The notes beneath the pieces were generated by a model. The model searched no databases and was not told the origin of the DNA. It saw only the letters and a program-made list of their open reading frames with translations. A stretch of 64,000 nucleotides of DNA from Chloroflexota bacterium (GTDB lineage Bacteria; Chloroflexota; UBA11872; VXOZ01): positions 1,824,001 through 1,888,000 of the forward strand of contig OZ219802.1 of NCBI GenBank assembly GCA_964291655.2, in the 5' to 3' direction. The translations under genes were made by a program, and so were the position numbers. Positions within the stretch are counted from its first letter, which is position 1; every line of letters starts with the position of its first letter. Below are positions 50,972 to 57,654 of this stretch, one piece after another.

Positions 50972-51622
50972 ATGACATTGAGCGACTTTCGCAGCTCGTT
51001 GCGTAACGAGTTGTTCGATCCGGCGGACAGCAAGCCGCGATTCAGCGATGCGGACCTGGACCACGCCATTGACCGCGCCCTGACAGAGCTTTCGCGAGTT
51101 GTGCCTTGGACGCGTGACGCGACGCTGACCACCAGTCCGGACTCGCGTTTGGTTGACCTCGGCAGCCTGTCGGATGTGTGGAGCGTGGAAGAGGTGGAGT
51201 GGCCCACGGGCGCCTACCCGCCGGAGCACTGCACCTTCATGGTGCTGCCGACCAGTGCGGGCACGCCGGGCTTCGTCTTTCTCCTCGTGCCGGAAGCGCC
51301 GAGTGCCGTGGACCCGGTGCGCGTGCGCTGGGGCACGAAGCACGTGGCGAGTGACAGCATGTGGTCGCTGCCGGAATCCTACACCGGCTTGCTGACAACC
51401 GGCGCGTACGCCCACGCGTGCCTGGCTTTCGCCACGCCCAAGTCTGAAAACTTCCGCTATCAGGACGGCCAGCAGGGCGCGGGCGTGGATACGAGCATGG
51501 TGAGCGGGTCGTGGTGGGAGAAAGGCACATCCGCCCGTGACAGATTTGAGCAGGAGCTCGACGCGCTGCGCCAGGAGCGGGCGCAGCAGGTCCGGGGCAG
51601 CGTGGCGTGGTCGGTGGATTAA
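50972..51622 (+). CDS. Putative head-tail adaptor / head completion protein
   Basis: Directly after capsid gene; RFSDADLDHAIDRAL N-terminal helix pattern typical of adaptors. Confidence 0.55.
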   Translation: MTLSDFRSSLRNELFDPADSKPRFSDADLDHAIDRALTELSRVVPWTRDATLTTSPDSRLVDLGSLSDVWSVEEVEWPTGAYPPEHCTFMVLPTSAGTPGFVFLLVPEAPSAVDPVRVRWGTKHVASDSMWSLPESYTGLLTTGAYAHACLAFATPKSENFRYQDGQQGAGVDTSMVSGSWWEKGTSARDRFEQELDALRQERAQQVRGSVAWSVD

Positions 51623-51750
51623 GCCGATCTGGCGGGCAGATCACGGTGATTGGTCAACTTGCTCACACCGGCTTGGGGTGGACTCAGCGTACTGCGTTGC
51701 GCGAGGGTCTGTGCTCACATAGCCCTGGTCAGTGCGTTGTCAGGGAAGAC

Positions 51751-52064
51751 CTGGATTCCGGCCTGCGCCGGAATGACGGACCTAGGGCTGTAGCGCGGGG
51801 GCTTGTCCTCCGCCTCGGGCGCTGAGCCTACGCAAAGCAGAAGAACTGGATTCCGGCCTGCGCCGGAATGACGGACCCAATGTCGTAGCGCGGGGGCTTG
51901 TCCCACGCCTCGGGCGCTGAGCTTACGCAAAGCAGAAGAACTGGATTCCGGCCTGCGCCGGCATGACGGACCTAGGGCTGTAGCGCGGGGGCTTGTCCCC
52001 CGCCTCGGGCGCTGAGCTTACGCAAATTAGAAGAACTGGATTCCGGCGGACGCCGGAATGACGG
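51751..52064. repeat. Tandem BIME-like array, 95-bp period
   Basis: CTGGATTCCGGC anchors at 51751, 51846, 51941, 52036; alternating CGTC- and GTAG-type palindromes. Confidence 0.88.
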
Positions 52065-52153
52065 ATCGCGCCGCTTGGACGGATTGCGCCGTTCGAACAG
52101 AGATGGCGGCGCGATCTGCAAACTTCGGCACGGAGAACCGACGGAGATTAACT

Positions 52154-52525
52154 ATGCTCGATAGGAAGCAGATCGAACAGGTAGCGGCGAACCGGGAGCG
52201 GATCCGGCAAGGGCGGCTGCGCACGGTCACACTGATCCGCACCAGCAGCGGCGCCACCACCTACGCCGCGGCACAGTGCACCTGGAAAGAGGAGCACAGC
52301 ACCGCTTCCGGCGCGGCAAATCAGTTACGCCGCAGCAGCAGCGGGCCTGACGTTTCAGCAGAGTTCGGCGCGGATGCCGACCTTTCCACTGTTGTGGCCA
52401 TTGCCGACACGCCGGATCGCGCGCAGGTGGCCGGCGCACGCAAGTATCGTGTGCTGGAACACCTGAGTCTAGGGTTGACCGGTACACCAAACCGCATTCT
52501 CGTCAAGCTTGTAGAGATAAGGTAA
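52154..52525 (+). CDS. Putative head closure (stopper)-like protein
   Basis: Size, position and RTVTL..KYRV..ILVKL beta pattern; GGAG RBS before ATG 52154. Confidence 0.45.
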   Translation: MLDRKQIEQVAANRERIRQGRLRTVTLIRTSSGATTYAAAQCTWKEEHSTASGAANQLRRSSSGPDVSAEFGADADLSTVVAIADTPDRAQVAGARKYRVLEHLSLGLTGTPNRILVKLVEIR

Positions 52526-56353: not shown

Positions 56354-56374
56354 GCTGTGTTGAATCCACCTACC

Positions 56375-57196
56375 GGTAGGGGCGGTTCGCGAACCGCCCC
56401 TACTACAACCCCACGCAGGGGAGAACCCGATGCCCTACGCTCCGTGTTCGTCATACAGGCGCAGAGTCTGGCCCGAACCCGACTCAGTAATCATATGCGA
56501 CTGTAGCGCGGGGGCTTGTCCCCCGCATCCCTCCTTACAGTGACCCGGCAAACTGGTGTCAGGTACAGAAGGCCTGTGCGCGCTACGCGAACAACCGGTG
56601 CAGGTTGGCCTCGTCAGGAATGCAGACGTGGACAAGGGTACAGTTACTATCCGGTAGCGCAGGTTTGCAACCTGCGGCCCGGCAAAATCCATACCCATGC
56701 ACGCAAGAATCCATCCACCGTAGGGGCGGTTCGCGAACCGCCCCTACTACATCCCACGCAAGGGAGAACCCAAAGTGCTACGCTCCGTGTTCGTCATCCG
56801 GGCGCAGAGTCTGCCTCGAACCCGATTCAGGGCGGTTTGTGAACCGCCTCTACGTCTCAATCCGGCAGCGCAGGCCCTTCGACAAAACCTGTACTGAACT
56901 TGTCGAAGGGCTCATGACACGTTTGCACCCTGCGGCCTGGCAAAATCCATACCCATGCACGCAAGAATCTATCCACCGGTAGGGGCGGTTCGCGAACCGC
57001 CTCTACTGCATCCCACGCAAGGGAGAACCCGATGCCCTACGCTCCGTGCTCGTCATCCAGGCGCAGAGTCTGCCCCGATCCCGACTCAGGGCGGTTCGCG
57101 AACCGCCTCTACTGCATCCCACGCAGGGGAGAACCCGATGCTATACGCTCCGTGCTCGTCATCCAGGCGCAGAGTCTGCCCCGAACCCGATTCAGC
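56375..57196. repeat. Array of GTAGGGGCGGTTCGCGAACCGCCCCTAC units with conserved linkers
   Basis: About four ~110-bp units plus other palindromes; single related copy near 35877. Confidence 0.85.
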
Positions 57197-57405
57197 GTAC
57201 CGAGACGGTGCTGGGCCGCAGCCCAGAGCTTGCCTACGGCGAGCACAGCGAATTGTGCGCTGCAGCCCTACTCGCGCGCTGTTGCGCGGCACATCAGCAA
57301 ATTAGATCGGTCTCACATAGGAATAACTTCGCCAGGAAAAGCCACACCGGTAGCTGCGTGAAGTCAACAGATATACGGTCCACCATTTGTAGAAAGGGGC
57401 AATCC

Positions 57406-57654
57406 ATGCCACAGCGAGCAGAAACGAGAGGCATCACACCCGGGTCCGCCTTGAGCGGCGTACTGCGGGCATTCGACGCGACGAACTGGCAGGCGGACGT
57501 ACAACTGACCGGCTCATTCCCCACGATTCTCACAGGCATCGCAGTAAATCGGGGGCTGGACGCCTCCGCAATCACCGTGGGCCAGCGCTGCATCGTCGTC
57601 TTCAACGACCTGCAGAACCCCAACGACGCCGTGCTCGTGGCGGTATATGTCTAG
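57406..57654 (+). CDS. Small OB-fold spike-like protein (gpV/gp45 N-domain-like)
   Basis: GVLRAFDATNWQADVQL...ITVGQRCIVVF..NPNDAVLVAV pattern; follows hub; AAGGGG RBS. Confidence 0.55.
   Translation: MPQRAETRGITPGSALSGVLRAFDATNWQADVQLTGSFPTILTGIAVNRGLDASAITVGQRCIVVFNDLQNPNDAVLVAVYV

Follow-up and report, generated by a model that had tools for sequence, protein, structure and literature searches.

To our knowledge, gene transfer agents (GTAs) have been described from a handful of lineages, namely the alphaproteobacterial RcGTA and BaGTA, VSH-1 of Brachyspira, Dd1 of Desulfovibrio and VTA of Methanococcus. RcGTA is encoded by a chromosomal head-tail cluster that has no integrase or replication genes, is inherited vertically and is conserved in its clade; its tail contains a tape measure and a short polymerised tube, and carries a tube-fold protein and a gp27-type hub at the tip. 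Among the titles and abstract openings covered by a limited literature search, none describes a GTA in Chloroflexi.

The locus analysed here lies in a Chloroflexota bacterium (GCA_964291655.2; 3.47-Mb genome, 97.6% complete), on contig OZ219802.1, positions 1,824,001-1,888,000 of the forward strand. This whole stretch of 64,000 nt is referred to as the window, and positions are counted from its first base. An earlier, sequence-only reading had described positions 50,972-57,654 as baseplate parts without a tail tube, sheath or tape measure; this stretch proves to be the tail half of a phage-derived structural cluster, which contains a possible small terminase (TerS), the large terminase (TerL), a portal, a protease-capsid fusion, an adaptor and tail parts. 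The cluster spans 18.5 kb in this genome versus roughly 13 kb without its IS copies and repeats. Like RcGTA, it is a chromosomal structural cluster in the size range of 13-15 kb; integrase and replication genes are lacking, and the tail tip combines a gp27-type hub with a tube-fold protein. Unlike RcGTA, it belongs to another phylum, its hub bears an N-terminal propeller, neither a tape measure nor a polymerised tube was found, and its DNA transfer is a proposal. We hold, with slightly better than even confidence, that it is a vertically inherited, selected GTA-like element, whose head would sit on a minimal tail of neck, tube-fold rings, hub and cap. The features of the locus are:

36044..36694, minus strand: lexA (LexA_DNA_bind and Peptidase_S24)
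39013..39100, no strand: conserved 30%-GC block 5' of the first cluster gene (GC 0.30), candidate promoter/operator
39177..39671, plus strand: possible small terminase, 164 aa, by position only
39842..41476, plus strand: large terminase (matches PHROG families of the terminase large subunit, best E 3.2e-7)
42214..43452, plus strand: portal protein (phrog_10963, E 5.4e-39)
43847..44593, minus strand: HicB/UPF0150-like gene (Pfam UPF0150, E 1.3e-6)
45580..47187, plus strand: IS1182-like transposase between the portal and capsid genes (DDE_Tnp_1_6, DUF772)
47240..49234, plus strand: prohead protease-major capsid protein fusion (PF25209 Phage_capsid_4, E 1.2e-45)
49476..50748, minus strand: IS481-like element between the capsid and adaptor genes (rve, LZ_Tnp_IS481)
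50966..51622, plus strand: head-to-tail adaptor, 218 aa (PF24175 SU10_adaptor, E 2.8e-6)
52154..52525, plus strand: 123-aa protein, possible head-tail joining protein or stopper (ORF open from 52058)
52531..52938, plus strand: p135, predicted tail-tube-fold protein (tube initiator, Dit or terminator-like ring; AF2 model and fold searches)
53379..53816, plus strand: p145, paralog of p135, assigned by paralogy
54038..54333, no strand: MITE of ~296 nt between p145 and the hub (repeats D11 and D12 at 88-90% identity)
54392..56353, plus strand: hub, 653 aa, predicted propeller (residues ~1-330) fused to a gp27/gp44/VgrG-type hub (~335-653)
57409..57654, plus strand: conserved 81-aa protein, proposed hub cap or plug by position

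The genes for head and packaging were traced through the orthologous loci fetched from ten species of the genus. TerL is found in 10/10 of them (dN/dS 0.14); its translation probably begins 25-35 codons or so downstream of the called start. The portal (dN/dS 0.07) is the sole PF04860 match in the whole genome, and the protease-capsid fusion also matches phrog_4523, 'major head and protease protein' (E 2.4e-70). The 164-aa protein, which has no family match in Pfam, PHROG or further profile searches, is kept in 10/10 loci with a dN/dS of 0.23; the HicB/UPF0150-like gene, which lies antisense within the cluster, is likewise present in 10/10 (dN/dS 0.18). An encapsulin-like compartment or a tailocin was considered and rejected, as portal, terminase and capsid are kept together with the tail-tip genes.

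3' of the protease-capsid gene, the order is adaptor (218 aa), 123-aa protein, two ~140-aa paralogs, 653-aa hub and 81-aa protein. The ORF positions given in the sequence-only reading all agree with the ORF list, and its account of the tail end, with only two ~140-aa paralogs, a hub and a small ORF, is confirmed. The adaptor (dN/dS 0.13) scores 28.4 bits with PF24175 against a cut-off of 27, and by this match the cluster has the adaptor of a T7/P22/SU10-type podovirus tail. No nozzle or tail-hub protein of the gp12/gp10 type was detected by Pfam or PHROG among the cluster ORFs; those 3' of the adaptor encode 123, 135, 145, 653 and 81 aa, of which the 135-aa protein was modelled as a tube-fold protein and the 653-aa protein as a gp27-type hub. 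The gene after the adaptor lies in a 155-aa ORF at 52058-52525, and because relatives carry stops upstream of M33, its start is most likely this methionine at 52154, which gives 123 aa. The protein has no match in Pfam, PHROG or PDB, and its family shows no relation to the 111-aa ORF found in the corresponding position of G041, a viral relative described below (hhalign probability 0.9%). From its position, and from a weak lead in a language-model neighbour cluster in which 28% of the members carry PF25138 (Phage_H_T_join_3), it may be a head-tail joining protein. The idea that the head docks almost directly on a minimal baseplate therefore holds as regards the minimal tail and fails as regards the docking, as a neck made of the SU10-type adaptor and the 123-aa protein stands between the head and the hub.

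The two ~140-aa ORFs are, as had been suggested, true paralogs, with 32-38% identity and 26 invariant columns over 19 sequences. Sequence-level searches with p135 and p145 yielded nothing usable, and the fold of p135 is taken from an AF2 model (pLDDT 87.7; Foldseek E 1e-5). Comparison with Dit and tube folds places this model in the tube/initiator/Dit superfamily. Its best fold matches (VIA) are chain U1 of the phage Milano baseplate (Z 11.4), a Mu baseplate chain (Z 10.9) and diffocin (Z 10.1), and the top matches in general, at Z 9-11.4, are baseplate-proximal, initiator-type tube-like chains. Weaker matches include Hcp (Z 8.6), SPP1 Dit (2x8k, Z 7.5), lambda gpM and tube proteins; monocin MttP, pyocin tube, SPP1 tube and lambda gpV, all of them true tube proteins, reach Z 6.6-7.2. 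Chains of the RcGTA virion and neck (PDB 6tba, 6toa) are also found among the matches. Hence p135 has, by prediction, a tail-tube, tube-initiator or Dit fold, and p145 is assigned to the same fold superfamily by its paralogy to p135. As this is the superfamily of polymerising tube proteins, p135 could in principle polymerise into a longer tube.

The 653-aa ORF had been read as a hub with an N-terminal Asp-box propeller, and both parts of this reading are borne out by the model (pLDDT 91.1) and the family profile. Residues ~335-653 take a gp27/gp44-type fold: Foldseek gives E 3.3e-18 to an eCIS spike/hub chain, and E 3e-18 to 1e-13 over ~330 columns against the hubs of eCIS, PVC, Mu gp44, pyocin and VgrG, with a TMt of 0.70 and E 4.7e-15 for Mu gp44 (1wru); tail and hub proteins in BFVD match the fold at E 1e-18. 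The N-terminal half matches the sialidases 3h6j and 2w38, and also 8t1y. In a search of the family profile against PDB, sialidase Asp-box chains are found at E 2.6e-5 and 1wru at E 6.4e-5. The hub carries a single canonical Asp-box, SSDGGTTW at residues 127-134, in which S is conserved in 50/52, G in 51/51 and W in 48/52 sequences; as conservation counts only, arginines R58 and R76 of the propeller are kept in 47/52 and 46/52 sequences. The protein is thus predicted to begin with a sialidase-like propeller that has one Asp-box and to continue as a hub of the gp27, Mu gp44 or VgrG type; glycan binding by this propeller is plausible. The hub of the window matches no Pfam family (PF22255, Gp44-like_2nd, is matched in 2/57 family members), and tblastn against 50,697 phage records gives no match at E 1e-3.

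The 81-aa protein, for which the sequence-only reading had suggested an OB-fold, has nine orthologs at 74-90% identity (dN/dS 0.11) and no family or PDB profile match. Its viral homologs have 194-214 aa and an additional C-terminal domain; a search of longer homologs for fused forms returned three uninformative matches. Prediction of a complex between the C-terminal half of the hub and the 81-aa protein (score 0.00, mark 0.32) is neutral on binding. We propose from its position that it is a cap or plug of the hub.

That these tail parts come without a tape measure, a sheath or a known tube family is confirmed. In the 3.47-Mb genome, with controls detected throughout, there are 0 matches to the sheath family PF04984, 0 to the tube families PF04985 and PF04630, and 0 to the tape-measure families PF10145, PF20155 and PF06791, three Pfam models that may miss divergent members of so diverse a group. 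The last of these searches covers the dispersed tape measure for which a genome-wide search had been proposed. No ORF in the stretch is fit for a tape measure or a sheath, and neither a tape-measure candidate nor any extra gene is found in 10/10 orthologous loci. On both conditions named for refuting the sequence-only reading, a tape measure encoded elsewhere and orthologous clusters with the missing genes, the outcome favours that reading. Integrase, replication, lysis and tailspike genes were likewise not detected in or near the cluster by Pfam and PHROG scans of the ORFs, nor was a lysis gene identified for particle release.

The cluster has relatives among viruses. Eleven IMG/VR loci (L023-L033), traced with an alignment of the p135 family, share the capsid, cap, hub, adaptor, tube-fold and TerL genes, and G041, a 46.3-kb viral record (CheckV 96%), also carries an integrase, a DnaD-like protein, an exonuclease, a holin and a beta-helix tailspike-like protein. 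When its proteins are compared with this genome by tblastn, matches are confined to portal, capsid, hub, adaptor and TerL; its integrase, replication, holin and tailspike proteins have none. Overall, these phages, which are temperate, uncultivated and from Chloroflexota, share with the cluster homologs of the capsid, portal, TerL, adaptor, tube-fold, hub and cap proteins at 25-51% identity and, likewise without a tape-measure match, the same tape-measure-less layout. They differ from the cluster in having one tube-fold gene instead of two, another gene order, a longer cap (194-214 aa) and adaptor (390 aa), and the integrase, replication, holin and tailspike-like genes that the cluster is without. 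Two G041 ORFs of 599 and 559 aa were set aside as not real for their wrong-frame-like composition, and the annotation of G041 covers the record outside these two stretches.

The absence of tape-measure, sheath and long-tube genes is accordingly borne out in the genome, in 10/10 loci and in a 96%-complete viral relative. It bears directly on the possibility that the cluster encodes an ordinary long non-contractile tail, in which one paralog polymerises while the ruler and its chaperones are divergent or encoded elsewhere. The tail-tube fold of p135 and its matches to true tube proteins at Z 6.6-7.2 would suit such a tail, two duplicated tube-fold genes could be a tube protein and its initiator, and known GTAs keep some genes at other loci. 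However, the best matches of p135 are initiator-type, baseplate-proximal chains and not tube proteins, the genome has no match to the families searched, the ten loci offer no additional gene, and G041 has a single tube-fold gene and no tape-measure match, with its two longest unexplained ORFs being the wrong-frame-like ones. We therefore consider a long tail unlikely.

Across the genus, the cluster is single-copy, and 10/10 loci fetched agree in gene order and in host flanks, with ubiD-aldolase-sigma-lexA on one side and HTH-aminotransferase on the other; intergenic gaps in these loci are all at most 1.9 kb. A portal or hub is present in 17/17 genus genomes. The hub occurs, in single copy, in 15 of the 16 other genomes and the portal in 16 of 17, this one included; the genome that misses the hub is not the one that misses the portal, and one of the two is 69% complete. 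Median dN/dS (9-10 species pairs) is 0.07-0.23 for all ten cluster genes, compared with 0.04-0.15 for the host flanks, at dS of 0.57-0.95. Cluster distances track those of the flanking host proteins (Mantel r 0.69; 0/5000 permutations as high), and since these yardstick genes are linked to the cluster, the co-divergence is also compatible with transfer of the whole region. Judged from these comparisons, the cluster is no prophage; it is fixed, vertically inherited and selected, a point that had been missed in the first reading.

The same data speak to the view that the cluster is a decaying prophage remnant without particle function, its conservation reflecting recent ancestry or one or two co-opted genes. 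The integrase, replication, lysis and tailspike genes are lost, IS, MITE and repeat sequences have invaded, the cap is shorter than its viral homologs, and in each of four genus genomes one cluster gene carries a single-base frameshift (capsid in G013, adaptor in G006, p135 in G005 and hub in G007). Yet all ten genes evolve under constraint like that of the host flanks, the portal ORF is intact in 16/16 genomes that have a portal, insertions avoid coding sequence, and the frame beyond each frameshift is still open and similar. The four frameshifts may be assembly errors or early decay. We regard a remnant as no more probable than a long tail.

A satellite-like or helper-dependent element of the capsid-forming island type, making heads with a partial tail tip and needing a helper for lysis, fibres or induction, appears more doubtful still. 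It would account for packaging and head genes without a lysis or tailspike gene, and true temperate phages, as potential helpers, do carry relatives of the tail genes in their genomes; however, there is no integrase, replication or excision gene, the flanks are the same in 10/10 species, no second portal was detected with PF04860 in this genome, and the element is in all genus genomes, unlike mobile islands. Finally, an intact, inducible temperate short-tailed prophage is very improbable: the head and tail-tip set looks complete and adjoins an S24-peptidase repressor-like gene, but this gene is the only lexA of the genome, integrase, replication, lysis and tailspike genes are missing in and near the cluster, and locus and flanks are the same in 10/10 species with host-like divergence.

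The GTA-like reading fits what is seen in known agents, in that a structural cluster without integrase, replication or a regulatory module of its own is kept at a fixed locus under purifying selection. Under this reading, the possible TerS, TerL, the portal and the protease-capsid fusion would form a DNA-packaging head. A minimal, non-contractile tail would follow, with the SU10-type adaptor on the portal, then the 123-aa protein as a possible joining protein and, distal to it, one or two rings of the tube-fold proteins p135 and p145. The tip would be a trimeric gp27/gp44-type hub, closed by the 81-aa protein, whose N-terminal propellers would be the sole receptor-binding parts. As the cluster has neither a tape measure nor an assembly chaperone, a sheath or a tailspike, its tail most likely spans only a few rings, i.e. 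a siphovirus-type tail cut down to its neck and tip. The cluster has lost integrase, replication, lysis and tailspike genes, and yet throughout the genus it has remained whole, kept its gene order and evolved under purifying selection; it most likely works as a host-made, gene-transfer-agent-like particle.

Such a tail has partial counterparts in several described systems. In SPP1-type siphoviruses, the order gp15-gp16-gp17, then Dit (gp19.1) and Tal, likewise comprises an adaptor, a small joining protein, tube-fold rings and a gp27-like hub, whereas tube protein repeats, a tape measure and chaperones lie between neck and tip, none of which is found here, and the hub extension is C-terminal there and N-terminal here. 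The hubs of Mu (gp44), T4 (gp27) and P2 (gpD) and VgrG have the fold of the C-terminal ~320 residues in common with the present hub, which differs by its 330-aa propeller and lack of a Pfam match; moreover, the cluster around it has no sheath, wedge proteins or recognisable needle. With short-tailed phages of the SU10/T7/P22 type, the cluster shares an adaptor that passes the SU10_adaptor cut-off, a presumably short tail and no tape measure; the nozzle is absent here, and the tip would be a gp27-type hub on tube-fold rings. HSTV-1 (Shortaselviridae) is presented as a short-tailed archaeal podovirus (PMC8651126). The hub fold is matched by a 596-aa protein of this virus, named 'Peptidase S74 domain-containing protein' (E 9e-15, rmsd 3.8, 335 columns); HSTV-1 is, however, a free archaeal virus without detected sequence similarity to this cluster, and the comparison of its tail module covers the hub. 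The earlier suggestion of a novel stubby particle can thus be kept as to the short tail, while a gp27-type hub on a short tail has a precedent.

We put forward, tentatively, the fuller proposal that the cluster represents a hitherto unrecognised GTA family in a sponge-associated Chloroflexota genus, with a host-owned particle that is universal in the genus, a stub tail of neck, two paralogous tube-fold rings and propeller-bearing hub, and no tape measure, perhaps switched on via the adjacent, sole lexA. If true, no GTA beyond the few lineages known so far would have preceded it in having a podovirus-like tail made from long-tail parts. A whole genus of uncultivated Chloroflexota would then join the GTA lineages, with a tail design that is new as well, and the particle would offer a route for gene exchange within the symbiont community. 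As a natural minimal tail, it could show which long-tail parts suffice for attachment and DNA exit, and the cluster could show short-tailed forms arising from long-tailed ancestors by the loss of tube and ruler.

The proposed link to lexA comes from its position. This gene, the only PF01726 match in the genome, adjoins the cluster in 10/10 loci and is divergent in the relatives. The intergenic region between them holds the 30%-GC block, which aligns as a block in four compact loci; an 11-mer from it occurs in 11/11 lexA-to-cluster intergenic regions and once in the window. The block is a candidate promoter or operator. GAACN4GTTC, which we take to be the SOS-box motif, has 0 matches in the window and in the 11 intergenic regions, and the block has no 7- or 8-mer in common with the region upstream of recA.

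The spacers had been attributed to repeats, and this explanation agrees with our counts: 351/531, 257/440, 480/575 and 718/1055 bases of four spacers occur at least once more elsewhere in the genome, as dispersed repeats, a MITE and IS copies. In compact relatives, p145 ends 5 nt before the hub, and this gap of 5 nt is seen in 6/10 loci. The IS1182-like element occurs three times in the window: its ORFs at 33154 and 36883 are identical to that of the copy between the portal and capsid genes, which is missing from that spot in relatives. The IS481-like element has a second copy at 60780-62144, with ends set by repeats D11 and D12, and the MITE is composed of both its ends. In this genome, the two IS copies that split the cluster could block co-transcription; all IS, MITE and repeat insertions in the cluster are intergenic.

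The genome that holds the window (3.47 Mb, 97.6% complete, Chloroflexota) carries the phage-derived cluster on its forward strand, between 39.2 and 57.7 kb. The sequence-only reading had seen here baseplate parts lacking a tube, sheath and tape measure, and had proposed a head docked almost directly on a minimal baseplate. Its description of the sequence is correct, as the ORFs are present as described and the tail-region spacers are mostly repeats, while its interpretation is only partly upheld. What is more notable is the cluster's genus-wide, selected, GTA-like status.

Genes in the cluster (window coordinates where listed)
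+ strand: 164-aa protein, first gene, without a family match
+ strand: large terminase
+ strand: portal
43847-44593, - strand: HicB/UPF0150-like gene, antisense, between the portal and capsid genes
+ strand: prohead protease fused to the major capsid protein
+ strand: 218-aa adaptor, above the Pfam SU10_adaptor cut-off
+ strand: 155-aa ORF
52531-52938, + strand: p135, 135 aa
53379-53816, + strand: p145, 145 aa
+ strand: hub, 653 aa
+ strand: cap (a proposed plug of the hub), 81 aa

The true start of the 155-aa ORF is most likely its 33rd codon, giving a protein of 123 aa, because stop codons precede that methionine in relatives. The antisense HicB/UPF0150-like gene is kept in 10/10 species with a dN/dS of 0.18, and no HicA partner was seen for it.

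Mobile elements
33154-34839, 36883-38481, 45580-47187: three IS1182-like copies, transposase ORFs identical over about 530 aa; one copy lies between the portal and capsid genes
49525-50718, 60780-62144: two IS481-like copies; one lies between the capsid and adaptor genes
54038-54333: MITE of ~296 nt, between p145 and hub, made of both IS481-like ends

All insertions within the cluster are intergenic. The gap between the p145 and hub genes is 575 nt in the window, where the MITE is inserted, versus 5 nt in relatives. The other spacers are mostly repeats with dozens of further genomic copies; in the four tail-region spacers, 351 of 531, 257 of 440, 480 of 575 and 718 of 1055 bases have at least one other copy in the genome. 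Arrays of short GC-rich palindromic repeats lie at 41500-42200, 43450-45560, 51620-52060 and 56350-57400; they have periods of about 95, 116 and 221 nt, recur tens to hundreds of times across the genome, and generate long spurious ORFs in several frames.

Of the 16 other species-level genomes in the genus, 15 have a single copy of the hub. It is absent from all 24 genomes of other genera in the class, which yielded three short, weak matches covering only ~40-65 propeller residues. The portal occurs in 16 of the 17 genus genomes, the window's own included. Since the hub and the portal are missed in different genomes (of which one is 69% complete), no genome of the genus lacks the cluster entirely. 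The ten loci fetched share one gene order and one set of host flanks: ubiD and the genes for an aldolase, a sigma factor and LexA at one end, those for an HTH protein and an aminotransferase at the opposite end. Compared with the window, each of the ten cluster genes has a median dN/dS within 0.07-0.23 (dS 0.57-0.95), which matches the 0.04-0.15 of the flanking host genes. Cluster protein distances follow those of LexA and the sigma factor (Mantel r 0.69, 0/5000 permutations as high), although this test of co-divergence is limited by the linkage of its yardstick to the cluster. Four genomes carry a single-base frameshift, one each and in different genes:

L016 (genus locus, genome G013), ~12087: capsid
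L020 (genus locus, G006), ~6023: adaptor
L019 (genus locus, G005), 5469-5872: p135
G007:C1:3431318-3433280 (G007): hub

The frames downstream of all four are still open and conserved, and the frameshifts may be assembly errors or early decay. Judged from sequence, this is no prophage but, on the best reading, a phage-derived cluster fixed in the ancestor of the genus, stripped to a head and a minimal tail, and kept by selection.

Searches of the whole genome with three tape-measure, one sheath and two tube families returned no matches, and the control genomes were matched; the cluster's portal is the sole Phage_portal match in the genome. None of the ten orthologous loci of other species contains an additional gene, the largest gap being 1.9 kb, and in the most compact locus the whole set, 81-aa gene included, occupies about 12.8 kb. 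Eleven IMG/VR loci encode proteins homologous to the capsid, cap, hub, adaptor, tube-fold protein and terminase. One of these lies on G041, a 46.3-kb viral record rated 96% complete, which encodes an integrase, DnaD-like, exonuclease, HerA-like and repressor-like proteins, a holin, a 530-aa beta-helix tailspike-like protein and a single tube-fold gene. No tape measure was matched in G041, the annotation of which is in the wrong frame in two stretches. Since none was found in the genome, the ten orthologous loci or G041, missing a tape measure characterises the phage family as a whole and is no quirk of the window locus. The integrase, replication, holin, lysin-like and tailspike-like proteins of G041 have no match anywhere in the window's genome. 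A response-regulator receiver domain protein is encoded just upstream of the hub gene in G041 (L029:4105-4551).

The hub itself has no match in Pfam or PHROG. A profile built from 16 orthologs recovered 270 representative proteins at E <= 0.001 from a library of 1.84 billion, mostly of 650-690 aa and matched over their full length. In an AlphaFold model from a 57-sequence alignment (mean pLDDT 91.1), Foldseek matches the C-terminal ~320 residues to baseplate hubs and spikes of contractile injection systems, and to Mu gp44, pyocin, P1, phage 80alpha, T4 gp27 and VgrG (E 3e-18 to 1e-9; TMt 0.70 to 1wru), and the N-terminal ~330 residues to sialidase-type propellers. Against PDB sequences, the family profile finds sialidase Asp-box regions (E 2.6e-5) and Mu gp44 (E 6.4e-5). 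The hub has one canonical Asp-box, SSDGGTTW at 127-134, which is conserved across the family.

p135 and p145 are paralogs of each other, with 143 relatives found; p135 was modelled from an alignment of 40 sequences (pLDDT 87.7). The model indicates a tail-tube fold for p135. Its best matches are tube-like chains adjoining the hub in baseplates (Z scores: Milano 11.4, Mu 10.9, diffocin 10.1, phiCD508 9.9), followed by lambda gpM, SPP1 Dit, Hcp, true tube proteins and RcGTA chains. For the 123-aa protein, one language-model neighbour cluster, with PF25138 (head-tail joining) on 28% of its members, offers a weak lead towards a head-tail joining role. The cap has no match in family searches or the PDB, and an OB fold for it is a guess. 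Its viral homologs are longer, at 194-214 aa, owing to an extra C-terminal domain:

L023:4765-5406, L027:2854-3447, L028:1067-1654, L033:1958-2539 (IMG/VR viral loci): cap homologs

This beta-rich domain of about 115 aa, with a conserved C-T-V-x-L-[YF] motif at its end, has been lost from the chromosomal copies.

Because terminase, portal and capsid are kept together with tail-tip parts, the most economical function for the cluster would be a DNA-carrying, GTA-like particle. Three observations count against this reading: four genomes each carry a frameshift in a cluster gene, two IS copies interrupt the cluster in the window's genome, and no lysis gene was found. In such a particle, TerL, perhaps with the 164-aa protein, would fill the capsid via the portal, which the adaptor and the 123-aa protein would close. 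p135 and p145 may form one or two hexameric rings, on which a hub trimer would dock; in 6 of the 10 loci, 5 nt separate the p145 gene from that of the hub. The cap would plug the hub. Candidates for receptor binding are limited to the hub's three propellers. With no ruler, chaperone or sheath, a stub of a tail is expected. Tube-fold proteins could in principle polymerise, but a longer tail built in this way is quite improbable.

As a system, RcGTA-type agents are closest to this GTA-like cluster, which differs from them in belonging to Chloroflexota, in having neither tape measure nor polymerised tube, and in its propeller-bearing hub. Structurally, its predicted tail looks like a siphovirus neck attached straight to a tail tip. 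A gp27-type hub in a short-tailed virus has a precedent in the archaeal podovirus HSTV-1, one protein of which matches the hub in fold; PMC8651126 describes the tail of this virus as short. PMC12002296 describes a canonical adaptor-nozzle podophage. No description of a GTA in Chloroflexi was found among the titles and abstract openings of the matches listed in a literature search; the papers retrieved on podoviruses with Dit or tape measure, and on hubs, were structural work on ordinary phages.

In every species the cluster has lexA as its divergent neighbour; the window's copy (36044-36694, - strand) is the only LexA_DNA_bind match in its genome. About 90 nt at 39013-39100, with 30% GC in a 60%-GC genome and GTAAA/TTTAC-type repeats, precede the first cluster gene, as such a block does in 11/11 species. 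SOS control of the cluster is only a lead, because no known SOS box was found and no 7- or 8-mer is shared with the recA upstream region. In compact relatives the block lies between lexA and the cluster; in the window, an IS copy and repeat arrays (36883-39004) part it from lexA. At dS 0.30, lexA is slower at silent sites than its neighbours, and an ECF-type sigma factor gene (35101-35787) adjoins it in all loci. In six of the ten fetched loci (some end short of the position), tblastn finds a HigA-like HTH antitoxin gene, which in the window lies directly downstream of the cluster at 58132-58503 (- strand; phrog_1381, E 7.6e-22).
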